64,000 nt of DNA from an uncultured virus (IMG/VR IMGVR_UViG_3300046524_000574) (IMGVR_UViG_3300046524_000574), one strand, 5' to 3'; counted from the first letter of the stretch, positions 1 to 21,990 are shown. Notes: generated by a model from the sequence alone, not told the origin. Program-made: numbers and translations.

Positions 1-2
1 AG

Positions 3-608: not shown

Positions 609-630
609 CAGGTTTAGCTAACGCGTACTG

Positions 631-655
631 AGGCTCGCCGGAGGCGGGCCTTTTT
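631..655 (+). terminator. Intrinsic terminator
   Basis: aggctcgcc-gga-ggcgggcct stem followed by a T run. Confidence 0.7.
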
Positions 656-715
656 CATTTGGCGCTGATGGTTTGGCCATGAGCAGCCGCCATCGTCCAC
701 ACCCGCTTTTTTTTC

Positions 716-721
716 CTATAC
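716..721 (+). promoter_or_regulatory. CTATAC motif upstream of adhesin paralog 1
   Basis: 28 nt before ATG 750; same motif and spacing before six other paralogs. Confidence 0.6.
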
Positions 722-749
722 AGGAGATTCGCACCTCAGCACACGGACT

Positions 750-2081
750 ATGCGCAAGACCCTTATCGCCGCCGTACTGGCGCTCACCAGTTTCTCCGCC
801 ATCGCCTCGGACTATTTTGTTGTGGTCCCTGTACCCAATCGCGCGGCGACGGTGGGTAACATCGTCGTTGCCCTCGCTGGCTACACCCTTCCGACGGGGT
901 TGGTAGGGCGGGCGTATGCGGGCTTCGACTTCAACAGTGTCCTGCAGGTCAAAGGCGACCCGGGCTTTAATGCGGATGGAGTGCAGTGGGCGCTTGCAAG
1001 CGGCGCGCTGCCGGCGGGGCTTACGTTCGGCGCGGATGGCAAGATAAGCGGCACGCCTACCGCGGCCGCGACCTCGGGCTTCCAGGTCAAGGCGTCGTAC
1101 CGAACCAAGTCAGGTGCGCAGGCCTACCAGGTCATCGTGGGCGAAGTCAGCGTGAGTCTCGCAGCCGCGACGCTGCCCGCTTTGACCGCCGGCACGGCGA
1201 TGGCGTACGACCTAAATACCAGCCTCACGGTCACAGGAGACACGGCGTTCAGCCGCGCAGACGTCGTCTGGAGCGCAACGAATCCGCTTCCCTTAGGTCT
1301 GGCGCTGGGCGCAGACGGCCGCATCACCGGGACGCCGACGGCAGTCGGTCCCGCGGCGGTCGACGTGACCGCAAGCTACCTGAACAAGACATCGGCGCCG
1401 GCTACCTACAACATGTCGGTGTCGGCAAACATCAGTGACCAGGGCGGGTTTCGAGGCTGGTCCGACGGCACCTACGCCACGAGCTGCAAGGGCTACCGGA
1501 CTCCGGCGCAGAACTACCTGTATTCCGGCTCGACCGGTGACGGGGTCTACCGAATCAAGGCTGATACAGCCGCGTATGACGTCCTGTGCGATATGACAAC
1601 GGACGGCGGAGGCTGGACGTTAGCCGCAAAGAACAGTGCAACAGGAGGCGCACTACGCCCGGCCTTCCTGGCCAATACTGGAAGCTTGCTGGGGTCGCTC
1701 ACAAGCCTGTCTGCGGGCGGCGCAAGGTTGCCCACTTCAGTCATCAATTCGATGTTCCAGAACGGCGGAGGGATTGCGCTCTACAAGGTTGGCGGCGCGC
1801 CGTACGCCTACTACAAGCGCCTAACGAGCCCCACGAGCTACGATTTTGCTTCCGCCTTCTTCACCTGGAGCGACGTCAACGCCGGCACGCTCAACGCCAA
1901 TTTCGCGCTTTACAGCTCGTTCGCGGCGCTGCAGAGCAATTCCGGCGCGTGGGCGTTTTGCAACTACGATGTCAATGTCGGATTCCCGCGCGATTGCGGA
2001 CCAAGCGGCAGCACGCCCTGGCAGTGGCTCGATTACGACGGTACCTTGCCGAGCGTAAACGGGTCACTCTGGCTCCGATAA
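750..2081 (+). CDS. Secreted Ig-like (He_PIG) repeat protein with fibrinogen-like hinge and variable tip, paralog 1 (2 stalk modules)
   Basis: Signal peptide, SDYFVVVPVPNR, GALPAGL..GADG.ISGTPT modules, DVLCDMTTDGGGWT, ends SLWLR. Confidence 0.85.
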   Translation: MRKTLIAAVLALTSFSAIASDYFVVVPVPNRAATVGNIVVALAGYTLPTGLVGRAYAGFDFNSVLQVKGDPGFNADGVQWALASGALPAGLTFGADGKISGTPTAAATSGFQVKASYRTKSGAQAYQVIVGEVSVSLAAATLPALTAGTAMAYDLNTSLTVTGDTAFSRADVVWSATNPLPLGLALGADGRITGTPTAVGPAAVDVTASYLNKTSAPATYNMSVSANISDQGGFRGWSDGTYATSCKGYRTPAQNYLYSGSTGDGVYRIKADTAAYDVLCDMTTDGGGWTLAAKNSATGGALRPAFLANTGSLLGSLTSLSAGGARLPTSVINSMFQNGGGIALYKVGGAPYAYYKRLTSPTSYDFASAFFTWSDVNAGTLNANFALYSSFAALQSNSGAWAFCNYDVNVGFPRDCGPSGSTPWQWLDYDGTLPSVNGSLWLR

Positions 2082-2105
2082 GCGACGCGCCGACGGCCAA
2101 CCTTC

Positions 2106-2139
2106 AACGCTCGACCTGTCGTCGGGCGTTTTGCTTTTC
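2106..2139 (+). terminator. Intrinsic terminator after paralog 1
   Basis: aacgctcgac-ctgtc-gtcgggcgtt plus T-rich tail. Confidence 0.6.
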
Positions 2140-2276
2140 TGACGTGCGGTGCGGCGCAGCCCCAATCCGTGTCAGTTGCCAAAAAAGCCAATAAACGATA
2201 TACTAAATTCAAGTTAAAAACCACCACAGAGCCTGCGGCCGGACGTGCATTGGCTCGCTAACTTGAAAAAGGACAC

Positions 2277-3110
2277 ATGAGCTCCTCGTCGACCTCCACC
2301 AATTCGAGCAGCAGCAAGCCCGTCTCGCCCACACGCATCGTGCAGTCTTTTCTGGGTGTTCTAATTTCGGTGCTGCTACTGACGCTGGTGCTGGGTCAGC
2401 TCAAATTGCCGCAAATCGGGTCGACGCTGTGGGAATTGGCCATTTACGGCATCGTGACCGGTTTTGAAGGGTTGGGCGTAGTGATTCCCGCTCTCGGCGA
2501 CGCAACTGCCTCGCACTACACGGTGTTGACCGGAGCGGTCGGTGTGTTCTGGCTGACCCACATCTACCTGCGCGTGAGCAAGACGGGGCACTACCGCGTG
2601 CGACCATTGGTCGACGCCCCCATGTTTTTGATGACGGCCTGGCTCCTCGTTATCTACTTCTCGTATTTCGAAAAAACACTGCCGCTCGACGCGACTTTCT
2701 TCTCCCGTGTTGCGCTTTATTGCGCCATCTCGCCGGTGGTGTTCAGTCTGACAGTGTCGCTGGGTTACCTCTCGAAGGTAGCCCAAGCAAAGCACGAGAA
2801 GGAAATGGAAGAGCCCTGGGTGATACTTTTCCTCATTTCACTGGTGCTCACCGTCGTTTGCGGAGTCGTCACCGGCTTTCGGGGCAGTGACTCGACGGTG
2901 CCGTTCTTGAGCTATCAGCTAACAAATGCGGTGCTCCACCTTCTGGCCAACATTGGTGGTTTCACGATGGGCGTATGGTTCCTTGATGGGGCTGACACGC
3001 CCGTACCGGAGAAAAAGGACCAACCCGGGGACGCGGCCGCAGTAGCAACTGAACCTGAGCAGCCCGCCCAACCGGCACCTGCTGGGGACTCGCGCGCGGA
3101 GAAACGCTAG
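2277..3110 (+). CDS. Multi-pass membrane protein, unknown function
   Basis: About 6-7 hydrophobic segments; AGGA RBS before ATG. Confidence 0.7.
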   Translation: MSSSSTSTNSSSSKPVSPTRIVQSFLGVLISVLLLTLVLGQLKLPQIGSTLWELAIYGIVTGFEGLGVVIPALGDATASHYTVLTGAVGVFWLTHIYLRVSKTGHYRVRPLVDAPMFLMTAWLLVIYFSYFEKTLPLDATFFSRVALYCAISPVVFSLTVSLGYLSKVAQAKHEKEMEEPWVILFLISLVLTVVCGVVTGFRGSDSTVPFLSYQLTNAVLHLLANIGGFTMGVWFLDGADTPVPEKKDQPGDAAAVATEPEQPAQPAPAGDSRAEKR

Positions 3111-3161
3111 GCGACGGGGATTTTCGGTCTATACCAAGAATCCCTTATGGCTCAATACCTC

Positions 3162-4997
3162 ATGTTCAAGAAAACGCTCCTTGCCTTGGCTGTGCTCTCG
3201 ACCAGCCTGCCTGCGTTCGCGAGCGACTACTACGTTGTCGTGCCTGTGCCGAATCGTTCGGCAACGTCAGGCAATATTCTCGTGACGTTGAGCGCCGTCG
3301 CCCCGCCTCAAGGCTTGGTCGGGGACGTCTACGCAGGATTTGATTTCAACACCGCGCTGCAGGTACTTGGGGACCCTGGCTTTGACGCCAGCAGCGTTCG
3401 CTGGTCGGTTACCGGCGGCGCGCTTCCCGCAGGACTTTCGCTCGGCGCGGACGGCAGGCTGACCGGCACGCTGACGGCAGCCGGCGCGTCCAATTTCCAG
3501 GTTATGGCTGCCTACAAAACCAAGGCTGGGCAGCAAACCTACACGGTCACCGTGAACAATCTTGTCATCGCGCTGGCGACCGCGAACTTGCCCAGCGGCG
3601 AACAGGGCGCGGCCTACTTTTTTGACCTGAAGCCGCGGCTCTCGGTCACCGGCGACCCGGCATACAGCCCCGCGCGCGTGAGCTGGAGCCTGGTGTCGGG
3701 CAGTCTGCCGGAGGGCTTGAATCTGAGCGCTGACGGCGTCATCTCCGGTACGCCGAGCGCAGAGAACACCGGCGCGCCGTTCGCGATTCAGGCTGCATAC
3801 AAAAACCGGAACGGCCAGGAGACCTATTCTGTCGTGGTGAGCGCCATCATCGTCAGTCTCGCAAACGCCACACCACCCACGGGCATCGTCGGCCAGACCT
3901 ATTCAGGGTTCGACCTGAAGCCATCGCTCACCGTGACGGGCGACGCAGCCTATCAGCCGGGCGCCGGCGTTTCGTGGTCCGTCGATAGCGGTACGCTGCC
4001 GGCCGGGCTCGCACTCGACGCCAATACGGGTGTCGTCGCCGGGTCACCGACCACGCCGAGCAGCACATCTGTCACGGTCAAGGCGACCTACAAGAGCAAG
4101 TCGGACAGCAAGGTCTACGCTTTTCCTGTTGTGGCCCAGTTGCAGCAGCAGTCCGGTTACCGCGCGTGGTCCGACGGCACGTATGCATCGAGCTGCAAGG
4201 GCTATCGCACACCGACCGACAGCAACTATCGCTACCAGGGAGCGACCGGGGACGGCACCTATCGCGTCAAGCCGGGCAGCTCGACGGTCGACGTCTATTG
4301 CGACCAGACAACGGACGGCGGCGGCTGGACACTGGTGCTTAAGTCGGATTTCAACGGCATGCGCTCGGACGTTATGGGTAAGGGCACCGCGGGTGTTTGT
4401 ACTCAGTTGACCGATGGCTGCCTGACGTCGGGCACGAGCGCTTTTTATCGTGGCACGGCGGTGCAGGCGACCATTCGCGATTACATGTTCCTGCAAAGCG
4501 CGAGTGGCCTGAACAATCTCTACGGCAACGTCATCCTGCTGGAAGCGGCAGGCAACTACATTCGCGGACCGGTTACAGCGCCTGGCACACAGCTCTTTGA
4601 CCTGATGACCGACACGACCGAGGGATGGGCGAGCCCGCTGAATCACAGTACGGACCCGAGCGACCAGAACTTGTACCGCTTCGGAAGCGCAGATGGGACG
4701 ACCATCTGGTCCGACGGCAACTGGCATGGTTGCGGAAGCAACTGGCCTATGGGCGTCAACGTCTCCGGTTGCGGGAGCTATCCGTATCAGGTGGGCGCGC
4801 AGGTGCTAACGCCGAGCAGCAACAATTGGGGTAACCACATGTACATGGGACCGCCGACGTATGACTCGTCTACCGCGCTGTATACGCTGCAGCCTTGGAC
4901 TTACTGGAATGTCGCACCCGAGCAGGCGTTCGGCAGCAACCGGACCATCGGTAAGGCGGCGCTCGAAGCCTGGCGCTGGGCAGCATTCGTGCGCTGA
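3162..4997 (+). CDS. He_PIG repeat / fibrinogen-hinge variable-tip protein, paralog 2 (3 modules)
   Basis: MFKKTLLALA signal peptide (ATG 3147 is an alternative start), SDYYVVVPVPNR, VYCDQTTDGGGWT, ends AAFVR; CTATAC at 3129-3134. Confidence 0.85.
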   Translation: MFKKTLLALAVLSTSLPAFASDYYVVVPVPNRSATSGNILVTLSAVAPPQGLVGDVYAGFDFNTALQVLGDPGFDASSVRWSVTGGALPAGLSLGADGRLTGTLTAAGASNFQVMAAYKTKAGQQTYTVTVNNLVIALATANLPSGEQGAAYFFDLKPRLSVTGDPAYSPARVSWSLVSGSLPEGLNLSADGVISGTPSAENTGAPFAIQAAYKNRNGQETYSVVVSAIIVSLANATPPTGIVGQTYSGFDLKPSLTVTGDAAYQPGAGVSWSVDSGTLPAGLALDANTGVVAGSPTTPSSTSVTVKATYKSKSDSKVYAFPVVAQLQQQSGYRAWSDGTYASSCKGYRTPTDSNYRYQGATGDGTYRVKPGSSTVDVYCDQTTDGGGWTLVLKSDFNGMRSDVMGKGTAGVCTQLTDGCLTSGTSAFYRGTAVQATIRDYMFLQSASGLNNLYGNVILLEAAGNYIRGPVTAPGTQLFDLMTDTTEGWASPLNHSTDPSDQNLYRFGSADGTTIWSDGNWHGCGSNWPMGVNVSGCGSYPYQVGAQVLTPSSNNWGNHMYMGPPTYDSSTALYTLQPWTYWNVAPEQAFGSNRTIGKAALEAWRWAAFVR

Positions 4998-5025
4998 GCC
5001 GGTAACGCAAATTTCGGCGCAAAAG

Positions 5026-5047
5026 AGGAGGCTAAGCCTCCTTTGTT
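5026..5047 (+). terminator. Intrinsic terminator (GGAGGC-taa-GCCTCC)
   Basis: Stem-loop with T-rich tail after paralog 2. Confidence 0.6.
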
Positions 5048-5171
5048 CGCTTTTTCCCAGGGAAATTATCGCTGCGAAACCCCGAATGGACAGAGGCCCG
5101 CAAGGCTCGACTCTCGGAGCGGGTGCGGTATGATTTGCGCTGTCTCTCGCAGTATCCGCTCAGGAGCTGAC

Positions 5172-5969
5172 ATGCCGCGCGCTACATCCCCTTCTTCGGC
5201 AGCGCAGGACCCAGAAAGAGAGCGACTGCTGAAGGCAGGCCTCGCAGTCCTGCCGGCGTATGTCGCCGGATTTTCCGTTGCCATTCAATCAAACCAGCCG
5301 GTGGCGCTTGGTGATTTCAGGCGTCGTGTGGGTGAGCTGGTCGAGCTCGCGAATCATGCTGCGACCCATATGGCTGGGTCCGACGAAGCGCATAACCTCC
5401 TCAAGCGGGCGAGCGAGTTGAGAGCCCTGAAGAGCTGGAATCCAAAATTGCCGGTCGACGCCGGCCTCGCGAATCTCGTCTCGCATCGCATTGGGGAGCC
5501 GCTCTACCGTCGAACTACGCCCGCGGGCAAGCCGTATCCGGTGCCCGAGCTCATGGGGCAGGCTGACCTGTCTTTGACCATCTGGGTTCCAGCTGAGGTC
5601 AGCCTGGACTTTGATGAAGAGCCAGTTAAAAGCAATCGACCATATCATCTAATGGACGAGTCCGAACCGCTGTGGCGCATCTCCGAGAAGCTCAAAAAAC
5701 CTGAATACGTCGTCAAAGGGCTCGAGTCTATCTACCGGTACGTTGTTGCTCCGCGCTCAATGGGCCTGCTCAAAACGTTCCGACAGCTGGAACAGCTCCG
5801 AACATGGGCCGAAGAAAACGCGGTCGTAGCCCACCCCAACTGGCCTGAAGCTACTGAGCGGCCGCACCTCGCAAACGAACGGTTTGGCGTATTGACGGAT
5901 GACGATGAAATCCGGAAAGAAGCTCGCTCCCTGTCTTTCCGGGTGCTTTTCGTCGAGTCGAGCACCTGA
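5172..5969 (+). CDS. Hypothetical protein
   Basis: ATG at 5172 preceded by AGGAG; long ORF, no recognisable motif. Confidence 0.6.
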   Translation: MPRATSPSSAAQDPERERLLKAGLAVLPAYVAGFSVAIQSNQPVALGDFRRRVGELVELANHAATHMAGSDEAHNLLKRASELRALKSWNPKLPVDAGLANLVSHRIGEPLYRRTTPAGKPYPVPELMGQADLSLTIWVPAEVSLDFDEEPVKSNRPYHLMDESEPLWRISEKLKKPEYVVKGLESIYRYVVAPRSMGLLKTFRQLEQLRTWAEENAVVAHPNWPEATERPHLANERFGVLTDDDEIRKEARSLSFRVLFVESST

Positions 5970-6094
5970 CGGCGAGCAACAAGAGCTGAAAATCCGCGCC
6001 CCGCACGTCCGGGGTCAAGGATGGTCTAAGGTACGCATAGACAAAAAGCATATATAATGCTATACCAAAGACTGCCCTAACCGTTTACCCCGCG

Positions 6095-7828
6095 ATGAAG
6101 AAAACCATTATCGCCGCCTTGCTGGCGGCGAGCAGCATGTCTGCGCTTGCGTCCGACTATTTCGTCGTAGTGCCGGTGCCAAACCGCTCGGCGACCGCCG
6201 GCAACATCCTGGTAACGCTCAACGGCTACTCGTTGCCGGCGGGCGTTATCGGCCGTGCGTACGCCGGATTCGATTTCAATTCCGTGCTTCAGGTGCTCGG
6301 AGACCCTGGTTACAGCGCGAGCAGCGTACGCTGGTCGGTGGTAGCTGGCGCGCTGCCCGCAGGTCTGACCCTGGGTGCTGACGGCAAGCTTACCGGTTTT
6401 CCGACTGCGGCTGCAACCTCGAGCTTCCAGGTGATGGCGGCGTACAAGACGAAGGCTGGAGAGCAGGCCTATCAGGTCCTCGTCAGCGACGTCAGCATTG
6501 TCCTGGCAGCCGATTCCGCGATGCCGGCCGGCGTGCAGGGTGCGCAATACAGCTATGACCTGAAGTCCCGTCTGAATGTGACGGGGGATGCGCAATACAC
6601 GCCGGCGCAGGTTTCCTGGACGGTCGCGAGCGGCGCGCTTCCTTCCGGGCTGCAGCTCAACGCAAATGGCACGATTACGGGCGTACCCGACGCGGAAGGG
6701 ACCTCTCCGTTCAACATCAAGGCGAGCTACCTGTCGAAGACGGGTCAGCAGAGCTATCAGGTCATCGTGGGCGCCATCTCGGTCAGCCTGAAGAGTGCTG
6801 CGCTCCCGTCCTTGACGGCGGGCACGGCGCTTACCTATGACCTTAAGCAGAACCTGACCATTTCGGGAGACGCGGCCTACGTAGGCGACGGCGCGAACGT
6901 GAACTGGAATCTCAGTGGCTCGCTGCCCGCCGGGCTGTCGCTGGGCTCTGACGGCCGCATCTCCGGCACGCCGACGGCAGTGGGCTCCTCGAGCATCACG
7001 GTGACGGCGGGATACAAGGCAAAATCCTCCCCGCCGGCGACCTACAGCATGTCGGTGACGGCCAACCTCAAGGACAACGGCGGCTTTCGGACCTGGTCCG
7101 ACGGCACATACGCGGCCAGCTGTCAGGGCTATCTGTCGCCCACCGCGCCGTATTTCTATACGGGAGCCACTGGCAACGGCGTCTATCGCATCAAGCCTTC
7201 GGGCACGCCGATGGATGTCTACTGCGACATGGTCAACGATGGCGGTGGCTGGATTCTGCTCATGAAGCAGGCCGCAGGTGACGGCGCAACGCTGCAGGGA
7301 GATGCCACCTACTGGACGAACGGCACGCCGCTGAATGACACCGTCTCGAACCTGAACATGAACAACGGCAATCTCGTGTCGGTGGCGTTTGCGGCCTTTC
7401 CGACGAGTCAGCTCAAGCTTCAGGCCAGCAACGAAACCACGACGCAAAAGCATACGAATACGAGTTCGATGACGGCTCAGGCGGCATTCAGCAACACACA
7501 CCTAACCAAATTCTCCGACCCTGTGAACGTCTATTTCCCGTCGGCGCCGAACTGGTTCGTTCACACCACGACTTATCCGACTGGCGCACCGCTGTCGTCG
7601 GCGCGCTTCGGATTCAACTTCAGCGAGACCTGGACTGCGGGAGACCCGACGGGAGTCCGATGCGCGGCGCGTTGGGGCTGGGCAGGCAACCAGGACACGA
7701 CGACGTCTGACGGCAGTCACGATGTCTGTGGTGGTCTCGGCGGCTGGGGCGTGGCCTACGGTTCCGAGTTCATGAACAACAACAAAGGCGCCTGGAATCC
7801 GGCGACGCTTTACCTCTGGGGCAAGTGA
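6095..7828 (+). CDS. He_PIG repeat / fibrinogen-hinge variable-tip protein, paralog 3 (3 modules)
   Basis: Signal peptide, SDYFVVVPVPNR, VYCDMVNDGGGW, ends YLWGK; CTATAC at 6060-6065. Confidence 0.85.
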   Translation: MKKTIIAALLAASSMSALASDYFVVVPVPNRSATAGNILVTLNGYSLPAGVIGRAYAGFDFNSVLQVLGDPGYSASSVRWSVVAGALPAGLTLGADGKLTGFPTAAATSSFQVMAAYKTKAGEQAYQVLVSDVSIVLAADSAMPAGVQGAQYSYDLKSRLNVTGDAQYTPAQVSWTVASGALPSGLQLNANGTITGVPDAEGTSPFNIKASYLSKTGQQSYQVIVGAISVSLKSAALPSLTAGTALTYDLKQNLTISGDAAYVGDGANVNWNLSGSLPAGLSLGSDGRISGTPTAVGSSSITVTAGYKAKSSPPATYSMSVTANLKDNGGFRTWSDGTYAASCQGYLSPTAPYFYTGATGNGVYRIKPSGTPMDVYCDMVNDGGGWILLMKQAAGDGATLQGDATYWTNGTPLNDTVSNLNMNNGNLVSVAFAAFPTSQLKLQASNETTTQKHTNTSSMTAQAAFSNTHLTKFSDPVNVYFPSAPNWFVHTTTYPTGAPLSSARFGFNFSETWTAGDPTGVRCAARWGWAGNQDTTTSDGSHDVCGGLGGWGVAYGSEFMNNNKGAWNPATLYLWGK

Positions 7829-7854
7829 GCGGGGGAGCTGCCAGAGCTAGATGC

Positions 7855-7877
7855 AAGGAGGCTTCGGCCTCCTTTTT
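7855..7877 (+). terminator. Intrinsic terminator (GGAGGC-ttcg-GCCTCC)
   Basis: aaggaggc-ttcg-gcctcctt plus T run. Confidence 0.8.
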
Positions 7878-7955
7878 GCGCGGTTCGAGAGACAATCGAC
7901 TCGACCAAATTGTAATATTACGCTATACCACGAAACATCCTTTGCTTCCCCTGCC

Positions 7956-9920
7956 ATGAAAAAGACCATTATCGCGGCGCTACTCGCGGGCAGTTGCCTG
8001 CCAGCTTTTGCGGCCAACTATTTCGTCGTCGTTCCGGTACCAAACCGCACGCCGACGGCCGGCAACATTCTGGTGACGCTCAGCGGCTACACGCTACCAG
8101 CTGGCGTGGTCGGTCGCGCGTACGCTGGTTTCGATTTCAACTCGGTGCTTCAGGTCCAAGGCGACCCGAACTTTGTCGCATCGAGCGTGCGCTGGTCGGC
8201 GGGCGCGCTGCCTGCCGGGATGACCCTGAGTTCGACTGGCAAGTTGAATGGCGTCCCGACGACCGGCGGCACCTCGACAATTCAGGTGCTCGCAAGTTAC
8301 AAGACGAAGGCAGGCCAGCAGGGCTATCAGGTTTTCGTGGCGGATGTGGCCGTGGCGCTTTTGAGCGCTGCGCTGCCAGACGGCGTTCAGGGCGCGACAT
8401 ACTCATACGATTTCAAGTCTCGCCTTTCAGTGACTGGAGATTCGCAATTCACGCCGGCGCAGGTCACGTGGTCGTCCATCGGAAGTCTGCCCACGGGTCT
8501 CCAGTTGCAAGCCGACGGCACGCTGACTGGCATTCCCACCGTGGCTGGCACGTACGCTTTCAAGGTGCAAGCGAGCTATCTCAACAAAGATGGTCAGCAG
8601 GACTACCAGGTATTGGTCGGGGCGATTACGGTCGCTCTCGGCAATGCGACGCTGCCTGCCGGCGTGCAGGGCGCCGCATACAGTTATGACCTGAAACAGA
8701 AGCTTTCCATCTCGGGAGATGCCGCTTACGCTGGCGCGGGTGTGACCTGGAGCCTGACCTCGGGGAGCCTGCCAGCAGGTCTAAGCCTTGGCGCGGATGG
8801 TGTCATTAACGGCACGCCGACGGCGGAAAACGCAGGCACGCCGTTCACAATTCAGGCCGCCTACAAGACGAAAGCCGGGCAGCAATCCTATTCGGTGCTG
8901 GTCGGCGCAATCACCGTGACGCTCAAGGGCAGCACGGCACCTGCGGCGACGGTCGGTCAGGCCTATAACAGCGGCAATGGCTGGGACCTCCAGCCCAATC
9001 TGACTATTGCCGGCGACGCAGGGTACAAAAACGATGGCGCGGGTGTGACGTGGGCAGTGACCGGCGGCGCGCTGCCGGCGGGTCTTGCGCTAAACAGCAA
9101 CGGTACGGTCACCGGCACGCCGACCGGAAGCAGCGGGACCAACCCGTTGCAGGTGACGGCCGCCTATAAGAGCAAGTCAACTGCCCAGAGCTACACCATC
9201 CCGTTCACGGGCGGCATAACGCAGTATTCCGGCTATCGCGCCTGGTCTGATGGCTCGATGGCCAAGAGCTGCCTCGAGTATTTCAACGGCAAGACGGGCT
9301 TTGCATACGCAGGCGCAACAGGCACCGGCGTCTACCGCGTCGACGTTGACGGGTCGGGTGCGCTGACGCCAGTTGATGTGGTCTGCGACATGACGAACGA
9401 CGGTGGCGGGTGGACCGTGTTCCAACGTCGCACGAATGGCGCGGTCAATTTCTACCAGACCTACGCAGCTTACGCGGCGGGCTTTGGTGCCGCGGCGACC
9501 GAATACTGGATGGGTAACGACCGGCTGGCCGCGCTCACAGCCGCGGGAGCTACTACCTTGCGCATCGACCTGACGCGATATACCGGCGCGACGGGTTATG
9601 CCAAGTACGCAGGGTTCAAGGTCGCTACGGCGGCGGATGCCTACCGCCTCTCCTTGACGTATTCGGGAGGCACGATTGGTGATTCGCTGACCTATCAGAA
9701 CGGCATGCAGTTCACTACTCAGGACGTCGACCACGACCCGTATCCGGATAACTGCGCGGTCACGTTCCATGGTGCCTGGTGGTACAACTCCTGCCACCAG
9801 TCGAATCTGAATGGCGGTTATCTCCATGGCGTCCACACGTCGTATGCCGACGGTATGGAATGGAACACCTGGACAGGCCAGTACGAGTCCATGGTGAAAA
9901 CCGAGATGAAGGTTCGGTAA
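7956..9920 (+). CDS. He_PIG repeat protein with complete fibrinogen C-terminal (FReD, ficolin-like) domain, paralog 4 (4 modules)
   Basis: MKKTII start matches paralogs; CDMTNDGGGWTVFQRR..G.VNFY, GFG..EYWMGN, LRIDL, NGMQFTTQDVDHD, NCA, GAWWYNSCHQSNLNG, TEMKVR; CTATAC at 7923-7928. Confidence 0.9.
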   Translation: MKKTIIAALLAGSCLPAFAANYFVVVPVPNRTPTAGNILVTLSGYTLPAGVVGRAYAGFDFNSVLQVQGDPNFVASSVRWSAGALPAGMTLSSTGKLNGVPTTGGTSTIQVLASYKTKAGQQGYQVFVADVAVALLSAALPDGVQGATYSYDFKSRLSVTGDSQFTPAQVTWSSIGSLPTGLQLQADGTLTGIPTVAGTYAFKVQASYLNKDGQQDYQVLVGAITVALGNATLPAGVQGAAYSYDLKQKLSISGDAAYAGAGVTWSLTSGSLPAGLSLGADGVINGTPTAENAGTPFTIQAAYKTKAGQQSYSVLVGAITVTLKGSTAPAATVGQAYNSGNGWDLQPNLTIAGDAGYKNDGAGVTWAVTGGALPAGLALNSNGTVTGTPTGSSGTNPLQVTAAYKSKSTAQSYTIPFTGGITQYSGYRAWSDGSMAKSCLEYFNGKTGFAYAGATGTGVYRVDVDGSGALTPVDVVCDMTNDGGGWTVFQRRTNGAVNFYQTYAAYAAGFGAAATEYWMGNDRLAALTAAGATTLRIDLTRYTGATGYAKYAGFKVATAADAYRLSLTYSGGTIGDSLTYQNGMQFTTQDVDHDPYPDNCAVTFHGAWWYNSCHQSNLNGGYLHGVHTSYADGMEWNTWTGQYESMVKTEMKVR

Positions 9921-9933
9921 TCCGGAGCGAGCA

Positions 9934-11889
9934 ATGAAAAAAACTATTCTTGCTGCGCTCATCGCCGCAGCCTCTGTTTCCGCGATGGCATCAGACTACT
10001 TCGTTGTGGTTCCCGTGCCGAACCGCTCGGCCACGACAGGTAACATTCTCGTTACGCTGAGCTCGTATGGTCTGCCGAACGCTGTCGCGGGCGACGCATA
10101 TGCAGGGTTCGATTTCAGCTCAGTGCTGCAAGTCAAAGGCGACCCGAACTTCACGCCTTCAAACGTGCGATGGTCCGTGTCAACGGGCGCGCTGCCGGCG
10201 GGTCTGTCGCTCAGTTCTGGCGGTCAACTGACGGGCACTCCCACGGTGGCGGGCACCTCTAACTTTGGGGTGATGGCGGCGTACAAGACTAAGGCCGGGC
10301 AACAGACCTACGCGGTGATGGTCAACAATCTGGTTGTGTCGCTCGCTTCGGCAAGTCTGCCTGTGGGCATTCAAGGAGCTGCATACAGCTATGACTTGAA
10401 GCCGAAACTCGCCATCACAGGGGACGCTGCGTACACGGGCCAGGGCATCACGTGGAGTGTTGCGGGTGGCAGCTTGCCCGCAGGCCTGAGCCTGAGTGCG
10501 GATGGCGTTATCTCCGGCACGCCAACGGCTGCAAACACCGGTACTCCGTTTGCCGTTCAGGCCTCGTACAAGACGAAGGCAGGGCAGCAGGCCTACCAGG
10601 TTGTCGTCGGCGCTATCGTGGTCACGCTCGGCGGCGCGGCGCTTCCTGCGGGCGTGCAAGGCGCGCCGTACAGCTACGACCTTAAGCCAAAGCTCGCCAT
10701 TACCGGCGATGCGGCATACGCAGGCACCGGCGTGACATGGAGTGTTGCGAGTGGCAGCTTGCCCGCGGGGCTGAGTCTGGGCGCAGACGGCGTCATCTCC
10801 GGCACTCCGAGCGCTGAAAGCGATGGCAGCACGCCGTTCACCGTTCAGGCGGCCTACAAGACCTCGACGGGGCAGCAGGGCTATGCCGTGGTGGTGGGTG
10901 CCATCACTGTGACATTGTCTGGCTCGACCTCGACGCCGCCGGGCGCGACGATTGGCCAGGCCTACAACAGCGGAAACGGTTGGAACCTCAAGCCGAATCT
11001 TGCGATTGCGGGCGATGCGGCGTACGCGGGAAATGGTGGCAGCGTCACCTGGTCGGTTGCCGGCGGCGCGCTCCCTACCGGGTTGAACCTCAACAGTGAT
11101 GGCACGGTGACTGGTACGCCGAGCGCGAACGGTACGAACCCGGTGCAGGTGAAGGCTGCGTACAAGGGAAAGTCTGCCACCCAGAGCTACACCTTCGCGG
11201 TCACGCAAATCCTGTCGCAGTTTTCGGGCTATCGGGCCTGGTCGGACAACACGTACGCCGCAAGTTGCAATGCGTATCTGAATCCCACGGCGGGACACCT
11301 GTATTCCGGCGCGACGGGCAATGGGGTGTACCGCTTGCAGACTGGCGGAACGGTCACCGATGCATACTGCGACATGACCGCGGATGGCGGCGGCTGGACA
11401 CTGGCGATGCGCGGCCTCGGCGGCAACATCACTGGATGGAACACCGCGGGCGCACTGAATCTGACACGCTCTGCGGCCGCTGATGCGTCGACGGGCATGA
11501 CCTTCAAGCTGGCCGACGCGACCATCAACCTGGTGCGCAACGGCGGACTCTATCGCCTGAAATCAGATGGGCTCATCAACCAGACGCGATTCGTGGCGCC
11601 TTTCGCTTATTCGCACACCACGCTGCTCACGCCGGCGATGACCGGCACGCCACCGACCGTCACATACGCGACTACCTCGTTCACGGGGCCCATGCGTGCG
11701 GCCAACCTGAGTCAGCCGTTCTACTACGGCATCTCCGACGACGGCGGGCAGTGGAACACGTACTTCTCGACCAACCGGACTGGTGGCGACTGGTCGCTCG
11801 GCATCAACGTAATCGGAAACGGAAACAACACTTCGCAATACTGCACGGGCGACATCGCCAACTGCAACTTCACGATGTGGGTGCGGTAA
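9934..11889 (+). CDS. He_PIG repeat / fibrinogen-hinge variable-tip protein, paralog 5 (4 modules)
   Basis: Starts 13 nt after paralog 4 with GGAG RBS; AYCDMTADGGGWT; ends TMWVR. Confidence 0.85.
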   Translation: MKKTILAALIAAASVSAMASDYFVVVPVPNRSATTGNILVTLSSYGLPNAVAGDAYAGFDFSSVLQVKGDPNFTPSNVRWSVSTGALPAGLSLSSGGQLTGTPTVAGTSNFGVMAAYKTKAGQQTYAVMVNNLVVSLASASLPVGIQGAAYSYDLKPKLAITGDAAYTGQGITWSVAGGSLPAGLSLSADGVISGTPTAANTGTPFAVQASYKTKAGQQAYQVVVGAIVVTLGGAALPAGVQGAPYSYDLKPKLAITGDAAYAGTGVTWSVASGSLPAGLSLGADGVISGTPSAESDGSTPFTVQAAYKTSTGQQGYAVVVGAITVTLSGSTSTPPGATIGQAYNSGNGWNLKPNLAIAGDAAYAGNGGSVTWSVAGGALPTGLNLNSDGTVTGTPSANGTNPVQVKAAYKGKSATQSYTFAVTQILSQFSGYRAWSDNTYAASCNAYLNPTAGHLYSGATGNGVYRLQTGGTVTDAYCDMTADGGGWTLAMRGLGGNITGWNTAGALNLTRSAAADASTGMTFKLADATINLVRNGGLYRLKSDGLINQTRFVAPFAYSHTTLLTPAMTGTPPTVTYATTSFTGPMRAANLSQPFYYGISDDGGQWNTYFSTNRTGGDWSLGINVIGNGNNTSQYCTGDIANCNFTMWVR

Positions 11890-11911
11890 GCCCGCTCGGG
11901 TAGCAGAAAGG

Positions 11912-11937
11912 GGGAGGCTAAATTGCCTCCCTTTCTC
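11912..11937 (+). terminator. Intrinsic terminator (GGAGGC-taaatt-GCCTCC)
   Basis: Stem-loop plus T-rich tail. Confidence 0.6.
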
Positions 11938-11994
11938 ATGGCATCAATCTAAGATTTTCCTATACGGGATACATTTCAAACCCCCGTGCAACTC

Positions 11995-13629
11995 ATGAAA
12001 AAAACCATCCTTGCCACCTTGCTCGCCGCCGGCAGCATTTCGGCGTTTGCGTCGGACTATTTCGTTGTCGTTCCTGTCCCAAATCGAACAGCGACCGCGG
12101 GCAATATCCTTGTTACGCTCAATGGATATTCGCTGCCGGCGGGCGTTCTTGGCCGGTCTTACGCAGGCTTTGATTTCAACGCGGTTCTACAGGTCAAGGG
12201 CGACCCAAGCTTTAGCCCCAGCAACGTACGATGGTCCCTCGCTGGCGGCGCGCTGCCGGCGGGACTCTCGCTTGGCGCGGACGGTAGGTTGAGCGGCACA
12301 CCGACTGTGGCAGTCACCTCGAGCTTCCAGGTGATGGCAAGCTACAAGACAAAAGCGGGCCAGCAGGCGTATCAGGTGTTCGTCGCAGACATCAACGTCG
12401 CATTGGCAGGGAACACGGCGATGCCGTCCGGCGTTCAGGGCGCGCAATACAGCTACGACCTGAAGAGTCTCCTGGCAGTCACAGGTGACCCGCAATACAC
12501 GCCTGCGCAGGTGTCATGGGCGCTTGCGAGCGGCGCCTTGCCTGTCGGTCTCCAGCTCAATTCCGACGGCAGGATTTCTGGGGTGCCAGGCGCGGAGGGG
12601 ACCTATCCTTTCACAGTCAAGGCGAGCTATCTCACCAAGTCCGGGCAGCAAAGCTACCAGATTGTGGTGGGCGCAATCACCATCAGCCTGGCTTCTGCAA
12701 CATTGCCTGACGCGCCGGCGGGAACCGCGTACACCTACGACCTGAAGCAGCACGTCACCGTGTCAGGAGACGCTGCGTATGCAGGCTCCGGGGCGGGTGT
12801 GAGCTGGAGCTCTGCTGGTCCACTTCCTGCCGGGCTGTCGATGGATGTGGCCGGTGTTATCTCGGGCACGCCGAGCGCCGCGGGCGTGAACACGCTGCAG
12901 GTTACGGCCGGCTACAAGGCCAAGACGTCCGCGCCAGCGAGCTACGCCCTGAAGGTGACGGCCAACGTCGTGGTCAGCAACGGTCACCGCGCGTGGTCGG
13001 ATGGCTCATTCGCGGCGAGCTGCAATGCCTATCGGAACCCCACTGGCCCGTATCTTTACACGGGCTCAACCGGGACCGGTGTTTATCGCATCAGTCTTGG
13101 TGGCACGCCAACCGACGTGTATTGCGACATGACCACGGCAGGCGGCGGCTGGACACTTGTTGGCCGCAGCGCGAGCGGCGGGACAGGCGTCTTCGGCTGG
13201 AACAGTGCTCAAGGTTCGCTGACAAATGAAGCTGTGCCGTATTCGCTCGGCAATACAGCGGCGCTCAATCCGACTCAGAGCTTACTCGGGAACTTCGCGG
13301 GCAATTTCACGTGGGGCGCATACGTTTACCAGACCAATTTGCCGGGTGGATTTCCGGGCAGTTGGGCCTCGACAGGTATTCAGTTGGGTAATCCGACGCC
13401 GGTAGCAGGTGGCAATCCGAATTTCGGTATGGCCCGAAGCATTGGATTCACGGCACGCACGGACGCGTTCTTCCTCCGCGATTGGGCGGAAACCTCTGGC
13501 GTCTATGGCCTGTTTCCGAATGGGTGGAACAGCGGCTACAACGACGGGAGTGACGACACTGCTGCGGGCTGGCCGATGGGTTGGGGCGGCTATATCAACA
13601 AGCAGCAGGGCTGGCTTTTCGTTCGCTAA
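11995..13629 (+). CDS. He_PIG repeat / fibrinogen-hinge variable-tip protein, paralog 6 (3 modules)
   Basis: MKKTIL start; VYCDMTTAGGGWT; ends WLFVR; CTATAC at 11960-11965. Confidence 0.85.
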   Translation: MKKTILATLLAAGSISAFASDYFVVVPVPNRTATAGNILVTLNGYSLPAGVLGRSYAGFDFNAVLQVKGDPSFSPSNVRWSLAGGALPAGLSLGADGRLSGTPTVAVTSSFQVMASYKTKAGQQAYQVFVADINVALAGNTAMPSGVQGAQYSYDLKSLLAVTGDPQYTPAQVSWALASGALPVGLQLNSDGRISGVPGAEGTYPFTVKASYLTKSGQQSYQIVVGAITISLASATLPDAPAGTAYTYDLKQHVTVSGDAAYAGSGAGVSWSSAGPLPAGLSMDVAGVISGTPSAAGVNTLQVTAGYKAKTSAPASYALKVTANVVVSNGHRAWSDGSFAASCNAYRNPTGPYLYTGSTGTGVYRISLGGTPTDVYCDMTTAGGGWTLVGRSASGGTGVFGWNSAQGSLTNEAVPYSLGNTAALNPTQSLLGNFAGNFTWGAYVYQTNLPGGFPGSWASTGIQLGNPTPVAGGNPNFGMARSIGFTARTDAFFLRDWAETSGVYGLFPNGWNSGYNDGSDDTAAGWPMGWGGYINKQQGWLFVR

Positions 13630-13635
13630 ATTCAC

Positions 13636-15078
13636 ATGAAAAAAACACTTCTCGCCGCCGTGCTTGCGGCCATCAGCTTCTCGGCATTCGCCGCCGATTA
13701 CTATGTTGTCGTGCCGGTACCGAATCGGGCAGCGAGCACGGGCAATATCCTCGTCACGCTCAATGGCTATTCGTTGGCGTCCGGCGTTGTTGGCCGCCCA
13801 TACATCGGCTTCGACTTTAACAACGCACTGCAGGTGCTTGGTGACCCCACATACACGCCGGGAAGTGTTCGCTGGTCTGTGGTGGGCGGCACGTTGCCTC
13901 CGGGGCTCGCGCTCGGCGCGGACGGAAAGCTCTCGGGCACCCCGAGGGCGGAGGCGTCATCGAGCTTCCAGGTGATGGCCGCGTACAAGAGTAAGGCAGG
14001 CCAGCAAAGCTATCAGGTGCTTGTGGCAAAGCTTGTCGTGAGCCTGGCCGGGGCAACACTTCCGGGCGGCATGGCGGGTGCGGCCTACAGCTACGACGTG
14101 AAGCCAAAGCTCCTGGTTACGGGAGACCCTCAATACTCGCCGACGTTAGTAGGCTGGTCGCTGACCGGCGGCGCGTTGCCAGCCGGTGTGCAGCTCGGCG
14201 CAGATGGGAACCTCATCGGAACGCCGACCGCAGCTGGGACTTTTCCTTTCACGCTTACGGCGAGCTATCAGGAGGGTTCGGGCTCGGCGAATTACAGCCT
14301 GGCGGTTGCAGCGAACGTTGTGAACAACGGGAGCTATCGTTCCTGGTCGGATGGCACCTACGCGGCGAGCTGCCAGGGTTACCTGAGCGCAAGTGCGCCT
14401 TACGTCTATTCCGGAGCGACCGGGGACGGCGTGTATCGCATTAATGTCGGCGGCGCGCCGACGGACGTGTATTGCAACCAGACAACGAACGGTGGCGGAT
14501 GGACGCTGGTGATGAAGCAGGCGCAGGGCGACGGGGCCACGCTTCAGGGCGATACGGCCTACTGGACGAGCGGCGTGACGCTCAATGACACAGCAGCGAG
14601 CCTGAACACGAACGACGGCAACTTCGTTTCATCCATGTTTGCGCGGATGAGCGCAACCCAGTACATGCTGCAGGCGGCCAATGAGTCGACAGTGAAGACG
14701 TATTCGCGCGCCGCGTCGACCCCTCTGGCCGCGTTCAGCAACGCCAACCGCACCCTGTACGATGATGCCAACGGCGTGCCTCAGGTTGACCCGGACTGGT
14801 TCATTCACGCAACGACTTATCCGACTGGGACCGTCATTACGCAGTCCCGCTTCGGATTCAACTTCATGGAGACCGTAGACGTGGTCGCCGGCACGGATTT
14901 GCCCTGTGGCGCGCGATGGGGATGGTCGTCTAATGAGAATCTGGCATCGAGCCCACTGAACGGGTCCAACGATGCGTGCGGCGGCCTGGGCGGGTATGGC
15001 TCACACTATGGCCTGTCCTGGATGAACAACAACCCAGGAGCCTGGCAACCCGCCACGCTGTACCTCTGGGCCAAATAG
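13636..15078 (+). CDS. He_PIG repeat / fibrinogen-hinge variable-tip protein, paralog 7 (2 modules)
   Basis: Starts 6 nt after paralog 6; ADYYVVVPVPNR; VYCNQTTNGGGWT; ends YLWAK. Confidence 0.85.
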   Translation: MKKTLLAAVLAAISFSAFAADYYVVVPVPNRAASTGNILVTLNGYSLASGVVGRPYIGFDFNNALQVLGDPTYTPGSVRWSVVGGTLPPGLALGADGKLSGTPRAEASSSFQVMAAYKSKAGQQSYQVLVAKLVVSLAGATLPGGMAGAAYSYDVKPKLLVTGDPQYSPTLVGWSLTGGALPAGVQLGADGNLIGTPTAAGTFPFTLTASYQEGSGSANYSLAVAANVVNNGSYRSWSDGTYAASCQGYLSASAPYVYSGATGDGVYRINVGGAPTDVYCNQTTNGGGWTLVMKQAQGDGATLQGDTAYWTSGVTLNDTAASLNTNDGNFVSSMFARMSATQYMLQAANESTVKTYSRAASTPLAAFSNANRTLYDDANGVPQVDPDWFIHATTYPTGTVITQSRFGFNFMETVDVVAGTDLPCGARWGWSSNENLASSPLNGSNDACGGLGGYGSHYGLSWMNNNPGAWQPATLYLWAK

Positions 15079-15160
15079 CTGACCGATTTGACCGGCATGC
15101 CGCAGCTCGGTACGCCGGTCGAAGCTATACATAGCAACGACAACGCCACCCAAGCTTTTC

Positions 15161-16870
15161 ATGAAAAAGACCGCCCTTGCCGCATTGCTCGCGGCCGCAA
15201 GCTTTTCTACCTTTGCCTCCGACTATTTTGTTGTCGTGCCGGTTCCAAGCCGCTCGGCCACGGCTGGCAATATCCTCGTTACGCTCAACGGATATTCGCT
15301 TCCTACCGGCGTCGTCGGTCGCACGTATGCAGGCTTCGATTTCAACGCCGTGCTCCAGGTGCTCGGAGACCCGTCTTATAGCCAGAGCAGTGTTCGCTGG
15401 TCCGTGGCCAGTGGCGCGCTTCCGGCTGGGCTCTCCCTGAGCGCCGACGGCAAACTCAGCGGCACGCCGACTGCCGCCGCGACATCGAGCTTCCAGGTGC
15501 TTGCGGCGTACAAGACCAAAGCAGGTCAGCAGGCCTACCAGGTGATGATTGCCGACATCGTCGTGGGACTCTCGAGCGCGACGCTCCCGCAGGGCGTGCA
15601 GGGCGCACCGTACAGCTATGACCTGAAGCAGAATCTGCAGGTTACCGGCGACCCGCAATACACTCCCGCGCAGGTGACGTGGTCGCTGGTGAGCGGCCCC
15701 TTGCCCGCGGGCGTGCAACTCAATACAAACGGCACGCTCAGCGGCACGCCTACGGCTGGCGGAACGTTCCCGGTTACCGTGCAGGCTAGTTACATGAACC
15801 GCGCTGGCCAGCGCACGTATCAGGTGATTGTTGCGACCGTCACCGTGGCGCTCTCGGATGTGGCGTTCCCCATGCTCACGGCGGGCACCGCGTACAGCTA
15901 CGACCTCAAGCAGAACCTTCAGGTCACCGGAGACACCGCGTACGCCGGCAATGGCGCCGGCGTGACGTGGTCGCTTTCGAGCGGTGCGCTGCCCGGCGGG
16001 TTGTCGCTCACGGGCGATGGCGTAATTTCTGGCTCGCCCACAACGGTCGGGGCCGCGTCGTTCGGAGTGAAGGCTGCGTATCTGCTCAGCTCGGGCAGCA
16101 AGGCCTACAGCATGGCGGTCAATGCCAACGTGAAGAACATGGGCAGCTATCGCGGGTGGTCCGACGGCACGTACGCGGCAAGCTGTCAGGCCTACCTGAG
16201 CCCGAGCGCGCCGTATATCTACGCGGGTGCGACGGGGGACGGCGTTTACCGAATCAGCGCTGGTGGCTCGACACTGGACGTCTACTGCAACCAGACTACC
16301 AACGGCGGCGGATGGGCGCTGCTCATGAAGCAGGCCCAGGGTGACTCGGCTACGCTGCGCTGGGGCACAGCATACTGGACGGGTACGACGCTCAACGAGC
16401 CGTCTGGCGCGAACACGGCCAACGGCAACTACGTCTCGACGGCCTTCAGCAAGATGCCGGTGACGCAGCTGGTGCTTCAGGCCGCGAATGAGGCTACGCT
16501 CAAGACTACCGCGGTCAGCAGCCAGACAGCGATGTCCGCCATGTCCGATGCGAAAGCAACCATCTACAGCGGCGACGTCGCAGGCATTCCGCAGACCTCG
16601 CCGAACTGGTCGACATACGTGACGAACTACCCGAATGACCTAGGCGGAGGAACACTGCTCAAGCAGTCTCGCTTCGGATTCAATTTCCGCGAGATGTCGG
16701 GCGGCAACAATGGCGTGTGTGGCGGCGCGAAATACGGCTGGGCAGTCGATGAAACGTCAACGGCGGCCATCAATGGCTGCGACGATTATGCAATCGGGCT
16801 GGGAGAACAGGGGGGGCAGGGCTTTCCGGCATTCAGCGCTCCGACAACCTACTACCTCTGGGGCAAATGA
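15161..16870 (+). CDS. He_PIG repeat / fibrinogen-hinge variable-tip protein, paralog 8 (3 modules)
   Basis: SDYFVVVPVPSR; VYCNQTTNGGGWA; ends YLWGK; CTATAC at 15125-15130. Confidence 0.85.
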   Translation: MKKTALAALLAAASFSTFASDYFVVVPVPSRSATAGNILVTLNGYSLPTGVVGRTYAGFDFNAVLQVLGDPSYSQSSVRWSVASGALPAGLSLSADGKLSGTPTAAATSSFQVLAAYKTKAGQQAYQVMIADIVVGLSSATLPQGVQGAPYSYDLKQNLQVTGDPQYTPAQVTWSLVSGPLPAGVQLNTNGTLSGTPTAGGTFPVTVQASYMNRAGQRTYQVIVATVTVALSDVAFPMLTAGTAYSYDLKQNLQVTGDTAYAGNGAGVTWSLSSGALPGGLSLTGDGVISGSPTTVGAASFGVKAAYLLSSGSKAYSMAVNANVKNMGSYRGWSDGTYAASCQAYLSPSAPYIYAGATGDGVYRISAGGSTLDVYCNQTTNGGGWALLMKQAQGDSATLRWGTAYWTGTTLNEPSGANTANGNYVSTAFSKMPVTQLVLQAANEATLKTTAVSSQTAMSAMSDAKATIYSGDVAGIPQTSPNWSTYVTNYPNDLGGGTLLKQSRFGFNFREMSGGNNGVCGGAKYGWAVDETSTAAINGCDDYAIGLGEQGGQGFPAFSAPTTYYLWGK

Positions 16871-16908
16871 AAAAGGAGGCTGGCGCGCGCGTCAGCCTCC
16901 TTTCATTT
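16871..16908. terminator. Probably bidirectional terminator (GGAGGC...GCCTCC) between the array and the Dsb gene
   Basis: aaaggaggctggc...gtcagcctccttt with flanking A and T runs, between convergent genes. Confidence 0.75.
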
Positions 16909-16963
16909 CCCGCTCGATGACGGGCCGCTTATGCTGTTTGCAGCTGAGCGGCCTTCGTCTTTC

Positions 16964-17806: not shown

Positions 17807-17929
17807 TTGTTACTCCGATTACGTGTGTGAGGTGTTGCAGCGATATTGATAGTATATCGTATAAAGCAACATTCGCAACAGTAATCGGAGTTCGGGCCGC
17901 CGACGGCCTGCTATTTTTGAGGCGACCCG

Positions 17930-20731: not shown

Positions 20732-20733
20732 TT

Positions 20734-21027: not shown

Positions 21028-21043
21028 CTCGACTCCGGTTTGC

Positions 21044-21958: not shown

Positions 21959-21990
21959 GACATCAAGGTTCCGTTAAGTTGCGACGCCAA

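Follow-up and report, generated by a model that had tools for sequence, protein, structure and literature searches.

A stretch of 64,000 nucleotides (nt) of DNA from an uncultured virus (IMG/VR IMGVR_UViG_3300046524_000574), referred to here as the window, carries nine paralogous genes on one strand: eight of them (g1 to g8) form a tandem array within positions 750-16870 (+) and a ninth (g9) begins at position 56194. Their bearer is a soil bacterium of the Burkholderia group. We consider it fairly probable that the array encodes secreted, modular, lectin-type adhesins analogous to the mosaic adhesive trimer (MAT) fibres of Bdellovibrio. The nine genes were recognised from the listing of open reading frames (ORFs) and from an alignment of their proteins, which share a scaffold made of a signal peptide, a conserved N-terminal extension, a stalk of immunoglobulin (Ig)-like modules and a hinge, and which differ in the C-terminal head that this scaffold bears.

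In the alignment of the nine proteins, every one opens with a signal peptide that has a K/R-rich start, a hydrophobic core and an A-x-A end, followed by a conserved mature N-terminal extension of about 16 residues with the near-invariant motif Y-F/Y-V-V-V-P-V-P-x-R. All nine matched the He_PIG family (Pfam PF05345) at 52.7-151.5 bits, against a profile cut-off of 24 bits, over 2, 3, 3, 4, 4, 3, 2, 3 and 4 stretches from g1 to g9. The stalk leads into a hinge with the consensus R.WSDG..A.SC..Y...G.TG.G.YR...C(D/N)....GGG(W/Y), and this passed the NCBIfam model NF040941 ('GGGWT_bact', a 46-position hinge model with a cut-off of 30 bits) in all nine paralogs at 35.2-46.4 bits. The Pfam Fibrinogen_C profile (PF00147) spanned the whole domain in g4 only, from position 11 to position 219 of its 221 (expectation value (E) 1.3e-62); in the remaining eight it covered just the first 45-55 profile positions (about 7-65), and these partial matches lay above the 22-bit cut-off in g1, g3, g6 and g9 and below it in g2, g5, g7 and g8. 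A sub-threshold Big_1 match in g2 came from the same Pfam scan of the nine. The heads are 154-222 residues long, and all nine close with a hydrophobic stretch and an R or K. Mean pairwise identity among the paralogs was highest in the N-terminal extension (80%) and lowest in the head (18.7%), with 64% for the first Ig module, 54.5% for the middle of the stalk and 58% for the hinge. Each class of hinge plus head has 2-6 conserved cysteines, some classes with extra conserved pairs. Relatives were sampled as the best 120 of 662 database matches, five of the 120 being the window's own proteins. The N-terminal motif, in strict or relaxed form, stood directly after the signal peptide in 117 of these 120, with the strict form in 76 and the non-strict forms judged by eye; the other three (P0003, P0019 and P0057) lack an intact N-terminus.

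Gene starts were assigned by a conserved M(K/R)KT, which places those of g2, g4, g6 and g9 slightly inside the longest ORF. The first gene, g1 (750-2081, 443 amino acids (aa)), ends in a head of class T1 (nt 1617-2078), and g2 (3162-4997, ORF opening at 3147, 611 aa) ends in T2 (nt 4329-4994), the largest head at 222 aa. Next come g3 (6095-7828, 577 aa), with an intelectin-like head T3 (nt 7253-7825), and g4 (7956-9920, ORF opening at 7851, 654 aa), with a full fibrinogen-related domain and head T4 (nt 9414-9917). Heads T5 (nt 11398-11886) and T6 (nt 13153-13626) belong to g5 (9934-11889, 651 aa) and g6 (11995-13629, ORF opening at 11986, 544 aa), respectively, and T3 recurs in both g7 (13636-15078, 480 aa; head at nt 14503-15075) and g8 (15161-16870, 569 aa; head at nt 16316-16867). 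The distant g9 (56194-58143, ORF opening at 56101, 649 aa) has the GGGY form of the hinge and head T9 (nt 57670-58140). Neighbours from g3 to g8 are spaced by 6-128 nt, and terminator-like hairpins lie downstream of g1 and g2.

The seven head classes result from clustering by BLAST of the sequences after the GGGW: g3, g7 and g8 together form T3 and the other six classes are singletons. Within T3, the head of g7 is 53% identical to that of g3 by BLAST (55% in a separate alignment), and that of g8 is 44% identical to both g3 and g7 (46% to g3 in the separate alignment). Profile-profile comparison of 11 head classes, in all 55 pairs, gave probabilities of at most 5.1%, and the heads of the other paralogs reached at most 0.4% against the g4 class; the classes thus appear mutually unrelated at the sequence level. 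Among the sampled relatives plus the window copies, T3 has 34 members, T4 29, T2 14, T6 9, T5 7 and T9 6; three classes absent from the window have 6, 5 and 3, two singletons have 1 each, and 14 relatives are hingeless. The T1 head is rare: a search of 5.8 billion proteins gave 3 clusters, including that of the window itself. The T2 head gave 13 clusters (one the window's own), of which 12 list He_PIG and one lists no family; its AlphaFold2 model reached a predicted local distance difference test score (pLDDT) of 40.9 and offered no usable fold. Language-model look-ups with T2 (hinge included) and T5 (head only) returned mostly unnamed clusters from viruses and Myxococcota, some with Fibrinogen_C in a minority of members (15% in one cluster found with T5), and these are weak leads only. 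What T1, T2, T5, T6 and T9 have in common with the two heads to which a fold was assigned, T3 and T4, is the disulfide-bonded first subdomain, a similar length and the terminal strand. An earlier note, made from the sequence alone, had described eight same-strand genes and a ninth on one plan, the same stalk counts, a He_PIG repeat, a hinge that opens a fibrinogen-related domain, an R/K-closed hydrophobic C-terminus and about seven tip types; the ORF listing, alignment, profile matches and clustering given above agree with all of these.

The head of g4 is the most readily placed of the seven classes. Residues 471-654 of g4 matched human ficolin-2 (4r9j) at E 3e-58 with about 51% identity (94 of 185 aligned positions, counted by hand), and the g4 head matched 68 PDB chains at E 1e-5 or less, with ficolin-1, FIBCD1, MFAP4, tenascins and tachylectin 5A following ficolin-2. 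It retains the D-x-D...C...GAWWY..CH.SNLNG.Y stretch of ficolin-2, which is conserved in 28 T4-class members and which we take to contain the Ca2+ site and acetyl pocket of ficolins. Judged by its sequence, the g4 head is a canonical ficolin-like fibrinogen-related domain, and by analogy with ficolins it probably binds acetylated sugars such as N-acetylglucosamine polymers in a Ca2+-dependent manner. Compared with ficolins, FIBCD1 and tachylectin 5A, it aligns end to end, including the terminal strand, and all nine paralogs share the first subdomain with its disulfide. The window proteins differ from ficolins in having a stalk of He_PIG Ig modules rather than a collagen-like or coiled-coil one, and in that eight of the nine heads depart after the first subdomain. 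For a bacterium-animal pair, the identity of the g4 head (9414-9917) to human ficolin-2 is unusually high; it suggests an inter-domain transfer, in either direction.

The second head with an assigned fold is T3. An AlphaFold2 model of its hinge plus head, built from 30 sequences, had a pLDDT of 88.5 and a predicted template modelling (TM) score of 0.89. Foldseek ranked lamprey serum lectin (7e1e), XEEL (4wmo) and human intelectin-1 (4wmq) first for this model, with identities of 12-16%, and we therefore assign an intelectin fold to the head shared by g3, g7 and g8, the final R/K strand being the terminal strand of that fold. The likeness to intelectins and X-type lectins is one of fold only, with no sequence match outside the hinge: in the hinge-included profile, the match to XEEL was confined to profile positions 358-415. 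A head-only T3 profile found 24 matches at E <=0.001 among 1.84 billion representatives. Fifteen of these 24 were scanned for their scaffolds: He_PIG stalks were present in seven, four Calx-beta/LapA-like modules in one, and SprB and InlB-type repeats in a further protein, of 2103 aa; two others (P0138 and P0139) open with a type IV pilin-like methylation motif, G-F-T-x-x-E in both, which scored 22.9 bits in one and 20.0 bits in the other against a cut-off of 21.2. The remaining four showed no stalk family: three matched through the hinge alone (Fibrinogen_C, in one case together with a weak match to COLFI) and the fourth had no match at all. P0138 and P0139 are candidate lectin-tipped pilins in other bacteria. 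When the T3 model was compared with a viral structure library, it matched uncharacterised cyanophage proteins (Prochlorococcus phage P-HM2, E 6.5e-11, TM score 0.59) and a 'phage tail fiber-like protein' (E 7e-4).

Among the relatives, the same scaffold was found with heads of other kinds: a phage Gp38 adhesin head in two (31.4 and 40.1 bits, cut-off 25), a ConA-like Laminin_G_3 head in metagenome locus L004 (53.8 bits, cut-off 27.6), and in others four thrombospondin type 1 (TSP1) repeats or ASH/HYDIN Ig modules. Because the scaffold bears other heads and the T3 head sits on other scaffolds, we regard the head as a swappable binding tip. The paralogs are old; they are 60-78% identical in DNA, without long near-identical tracts. 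On a tree of the N-terminal module (FastTree, 115 columns, 121 rows, three truncated rows dropped), the head class switches 36 times, against a floor of 11 and 78-80 switches in five shuffles. For g3, g6, g7, g8 and g9, the closest N-terminal modules (87-98%) come from proteins of other contigs that bear the same head class; for g2, g4 and g5, they come from proteins with a different head class. The number of stalk modules also varies within classes (T4 3-7, T5 3-6, T2 3-6, T3 2-4). Together, these sequence comparisons point to evolution by whole-gene duplication and by gain and loss of stalk modules, with some recombination between stalk and head. For a single orthologous pair, g9 and its 81%-identical ortholog in metagenome locus L003, the ratio of non-synonymous to synonymous substitution rates (dN/dS) was lowest in the hinge (0.049), followed by the head (0.087) and the stalk (0.153), and in this one pair the head is under purifying rather than diversifying selection.

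Named relatives come from Burkholderia ubonensis, B. multivorans and two Paraburkholderia strains, and many more from JGI, ENA and Logan assemblies; the family also occurs in soil metagenomes, with several copies per contig. The named RefSeq relatives are 60-68% identical over their full length and have the same architecture, and in databases they are called 'fibrinogen-related protein', 'Fibrinogen C-terminal domain-containing protein' or 'putative Ig domain-containing protein'. The B. ubonensis locus tags WJ96_05405, WJ96_05410 and WJ96_05420, and WJ97_12335 and WJ97_12340, are close in number, which points to neighbouring copies in this species too. The sets of heads differ between contigs: T3, T3, T4, T2, Tc, T4 and Tb on one of 642,938 bp; three T3, two T4 and Ta on one of 630,577 bp; and two T3, T6, T4 and a hingeless protein on one of 631,135 bp. 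Pieces identical to the window occur in a rhizosphere metagenome run, X1, which is probably its source. In two other rhizosphere runs, X2 and X3, versions of parts of the window were found at 83-95% identity, and on one X3 contig 3654 nt separate the g1 head from the stretch after g2, where the window has 2802 nt; this hints at a difference in the middle part. A scan of species-representative genomes gave 31 stretches that fit the pattern and one that was confirmed, a hingeless protein of Paraburkholderia susongensis; around this species, the family was present in 1 of 296 scored family-level genomes (5 more were unscored) and 1 of 201 genus-level genomes, in both cases P. susongensis itself. 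By these scans, the family appears rare among species-representative genomes.

The contigs that bear relatives cluster at 0.58-0.72 Mb: 592,846, 630,577, 640,048, 640,310 and 642,938 bp in B. ubonensis, 625,319 and 631,135 bp in B. multivorans, 611,493 and 619,140 bp in Paraburkholderia spp., and 578,827-720,352 bp in JGI assemblies. They may represent one shared type of large replicon. Genes for GGGW domains without this family's N-terminus are also found in tandem on one strand, four of them adjacent in locus L012 (9455-15193, on a 1.46-Mb contig) and three adjacent in L036 (3-14995), with one more about 3.7 kb upstream. Tandem fibrinogen-type sets recur in unrelated organisms.

The closest described parallel to this organisation is that of the MAT fibres. 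Passages of a study of Bdellovibrio bacteriovorus (PMC10769870) describe 21 MATs, each with a beta-rich domain of about 130 aa that immediately follows its signal peptide, and with lectin-like tips that vary among them; they locate this N-terminal domain on the cell surface, where it would be attached to an element not yet identified, and depict the MATs as trimeric beta-helix fibres of about 1000 aa, 13 of the 21 with an S74 chaperone-protease. As far as those passages go, both families are multi-paralog and secreted, with a conserved domain after the signal peptide, a shaft of variable length and exchangeable tips. The window family differs in that its shaft consists of tandem Ig modules and that no S74 was found in the Pfam scan of the nine, so the relation is one of analogy and not of membership.

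We propose that the proteins would be exported by Sec, oxidised in the periplasm and then released or displayed. Oxidation might be aided by the product of a gene that converges on the end of the array (16964-17806, -), a DsbC/DsbG-like periplasmic thioredoxin-fold protein with a signal peptide (Thioredoxin_2 E 4e-10, Thioredoxin_4 E 2.7e-6); we infer its link to the disulfide-bearing heads because of its proximity and of the conserved cysteine pairs. The invariant N-terminal end and first Ig module would attach all paralogs to a single shared partner or element of the surface, a step that is purely inferential, the stalk would set the reach, and each head class would bind a different glycan or other surface ligand. 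Change from strain to strain would come about by gain and loss of whole paralogs, by the number of stalk modules and by stalk-head recombination, and not by hypermutation or DNA inversion. A likely use would be adhesion to the surfaces of fungi, plants or microbes in soil and the rhizosphere.

Several results weigh against reading the array as lectin-type adhesins. Pfam found no outer-membrane export route among the 51 window ORFs scanned, and a periplasmic location is possible. A fold was assigned to only two of the seven head classes, and T1, T2, T5, T6 and T9 may not be lectin folds, since they show no profile similarity to the T3 and T4 heads. For T3, a PDB search with the head-only profile, up to E 10, retrieved no intelectin chain, and the 15 library matches examined, of 24, include none that resembles an animal intelectin; a likeness seen in the model at the level of fold need not imply conservation of the sugar-binding site, whose residues in intelectins hold exocyclic 1,2-diols in a Ca2+-dependent manner. 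The argument from mosaicism is weak, leaning on the poorly resolving 115-column FastTree, and in the comparison of head sets, drawn from the best 120 of 662 matches, the length of the longest contig stands in for a genome.

It is unlikely, in our view, that the proteins are instead matrix lectins, secreted to bind the producer's own exopolysaccharides or lipopolysaccharide and to organise a biofilm matrix. Such lectins would have the same secreted architecture, and bacterial examples exist in LecA and LecB of Pseudomonas and RbmC and Bap1 of Vibrio. However, the Pfam scan of the 51 window ORFs found no polysaccharide-synthesis family (nor any conjugation, type IV secretion system, relaxase, pilus/pilin, recombinase or phage-structural family), seven or more unrelated head classes per genome seems an excess for one matrix, and the ficolin-like and intelectin-like heads of animals bind foreign glycans. 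We find it distinctly improbable that the proteins are periplasmic or otherwise non-adhesive, with those heads that lack an assigned fold acting as enzymes or binders of small molecules. The missing export route, the five unassigned classes and the adjoining DsbC/G-like gene would all suit such a role, but both heads with an assigned fold are lectin folds, the scaffold bears adhesin or lectin domains elsewhere, and a long Ig stalk is a common trait of proteins that are secreted or lie at the cell surface.

The idea of recipient-recognition adhesins of a conjugative element, as a whole-gene counterpart of the PilV shufflon, is scarcely credible: alternative tips on a common body do resemble PilV variants and the T3 head sits on two type IV pilin-like proteins of other organisms, but none of the nine has a pilin N-terminus or N_methyl motif and all have ordinary Sec signal peptides, the 51 ORFs scanned yielded none of the conjugation, pilus or recombinase families listed above, 72,556 plasmid records gave no near match (three matches below 100 nt, all in the RtcR region) and plasmid proteins matched only in the stalk repeats, at <=37% identity, and positions 1-18000 hold only three weak inverted-repeat pairs (20-26 nt, 77-85% complementary) and no shufflon-type set, all genes being complete and on the same strand. 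It is just as hard to credit that the array encodes the receptor-binding fibres used by a phage, a tailocin or a contractile injection system, a reading for which the T3 model's matches to cyanophage and 'tail fiber-like' proteins and the Gp38 heads of two relatives would speak, given that Sec signal peptides on all nine are unexpected for such fibres, that PHROGs on 28 window ORFs found no structural phage family (three 'unknown function' matches only), that the window holds no tRNAs and no Rfam families, and that in a tblastn search of 50,697 phage records T3 matched through its hinge only and T2 not at all.

The adhesin reading is thus the one that we retain, and with it parts of the interpretation put forward in the earlier note. 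By its own criterion, an array identical across relatives would have refuted it; the multi-copy sets with differing heads on separate contigs indicate, if indirectly, that this is not the case, in a comparison by contig within the best 120 of 662 matches. Receptor- or glycan-binding tips fit the ficolin-like T4, the intelectin-like T3 and the lectin and adhesin heads on relatives; the other five classes are without a fold assignment. The word 'polymorphic' holds insofar as head sets differ, but the classes are discrete and conserved across genomes, and the head dN/dS was 0.087 in the one pair. The framing in terms of plasmids, conjugation and shufflons finds no support in the ORF, plasmid and inverted-repeat results just given: PilV-type shufflons have a type IV prepilin N-terminus, alternative C-terminal segments between inverted repeats and a site-specific recombinase, none of which was seen in the nine proteins, in positions 1-18000 or among the 51 ORFs scanned, respectively. 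As for the claim that this is not a described system, full-text literature searches, supplementary files aside, found no paper on the He_PIG-stalked family or its tandem arrays; on the other hand, the hinge domain is catalogued, relatives carry names in RefSeq and tip-swapping adhesin families are described in print. All nine window proteins score above the cut-off of NF040941, a model that covers 46 residues of the hinge and not the variable heads; like the RefSeq name 'fibrinogen-related protein' it is an annotation label, for which the literature searches turned up neither a function nor a structure.

Two ORFs inside the array do not belong to the family. The first (2277-3110, +, 277 aa) has about five hydrophobic segments in a hydropathy scan, a Ser/Thr-rich N-terminus and a G+C content at third codon positions (GC3) of 0.716; it had no match in Pfam, NCBIfam or PHROGs and no counterpart beside relatives in metagenome loci L001 and L003-L007. 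The second (5043-5969, +, 308 aa, TTG start) has a GC3 of 0.634, below that of its neighbours, and likewise had no match in Pfam, NCBIfam or PHROGs; it is doubtful as a real gene, although contigs of runs X2 and X3 carry its DNA at about 90% identity. An imperfect 20-nt inverted repeat (649-668 and 16857-16876, 85% complementary) flanks the eight-gene array almost exactly, and may be due to chance or to two terminator-like T/A runs. Between the array and g9, positions 19133-35712 hold a cluster of genes linked to RNA repair and to ADP-ribose and NAD, namely RtcR (-), RtcB (+), NADAR, SIR2, DUF6884, an AraC regulator, an RNA ligase and a PfkB kinase. The contig behind the window is 73,804 bp long and extends past it, and there may be a tenth family member there.

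Upstream of g9, Pfam identified a HisKA_3 histidine kinase (53817-55355, +) and, directly upstream, a LuxR-type response regulator (55389-56045, +). The order of kinase, regulator and family member is kept in L003 (7536-11887; 80%, 87% and 81% identity) and in L005 (6093-11005; 56%, 70% and 46%), and the two-component pair may regulate the family as a dedicated regulatory module. L003 is syntenic with the window from 44.4 to 64 kb, its proteins being 75-90% identical. It carries a further family member, with an ASH/HYDIN-type Ig module, at 20045-21424, which lies some 8 kb downstream from its g9 ortholog.

A comparison with animal repertoires of lectins can be drawn through the FREPs of Biomphalaria glabrata, an expanded family described as combining Ig-superfamily (IgSF) domains with a fibrinogen domain (PMC7588048). 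On that description, the FREPs have the same order of parts as the window family, Ig-like modules and then a fibrinogen-type head, with Ig modules that are unrelated (IgSF as opposed to He_PIG); the likeness is convergent. FREP diversity is reported to arise partly from somatic diversification, and in this the window family differs, its diversity lying in discrete germline paralogs, with purifying selection in the one pair compared. A bolder view, which we put forward as speculative and think unlikely to hold as a whole, is that the array would correspond, in a bacterium, to the animal repertoires of ficolins, intelectins and FREPs: a germline panel of glycan receptors, joined through the invariant N-terminal strand and first Ig module to one surface anchor or into mixed oligomers, which would form a combinatorial surface re-tooled by head and stalk swapping, switched by the two-component pair and able to discriminate between fungal, plant, amoebal and bacterial partners in the rhizosphere. 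If this were true, the presence of ficolin-like and intelectin-like heads on one scaffold would bear on the origin of 'animal' lectin domains.

The points of interest in this family are the tandem panel of eight genes, the head that is about 51% identical to a human ficolin, the intelectin-fold head, the five heads without an assigned fold and the existence of culturable carriers. Passages of a study of a lamprey lectin (PMC9682848) mention bacterial and phage proteins with fibrinogen or intelectin-like domains and propose a phage and bacterial origin for the intelectin domain, and the family adds data to the debate on domain transfer among bacteria, phages and animals. Fibrinogen-related and intelectin lectins are usually viewed as proteins of animal innate immunity, and here one bacterial scaffold carries both types. 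The array offers a route to studying how an adhesin repertoire evolves by module exchange, and its heads are compact, disulfide-stabilised candidate glycan binders, possibly with new specificities. The culturable Burkholderia and Paraburkholderia relatives provide a tractable system in which to establish what such domains bind in bacteria.

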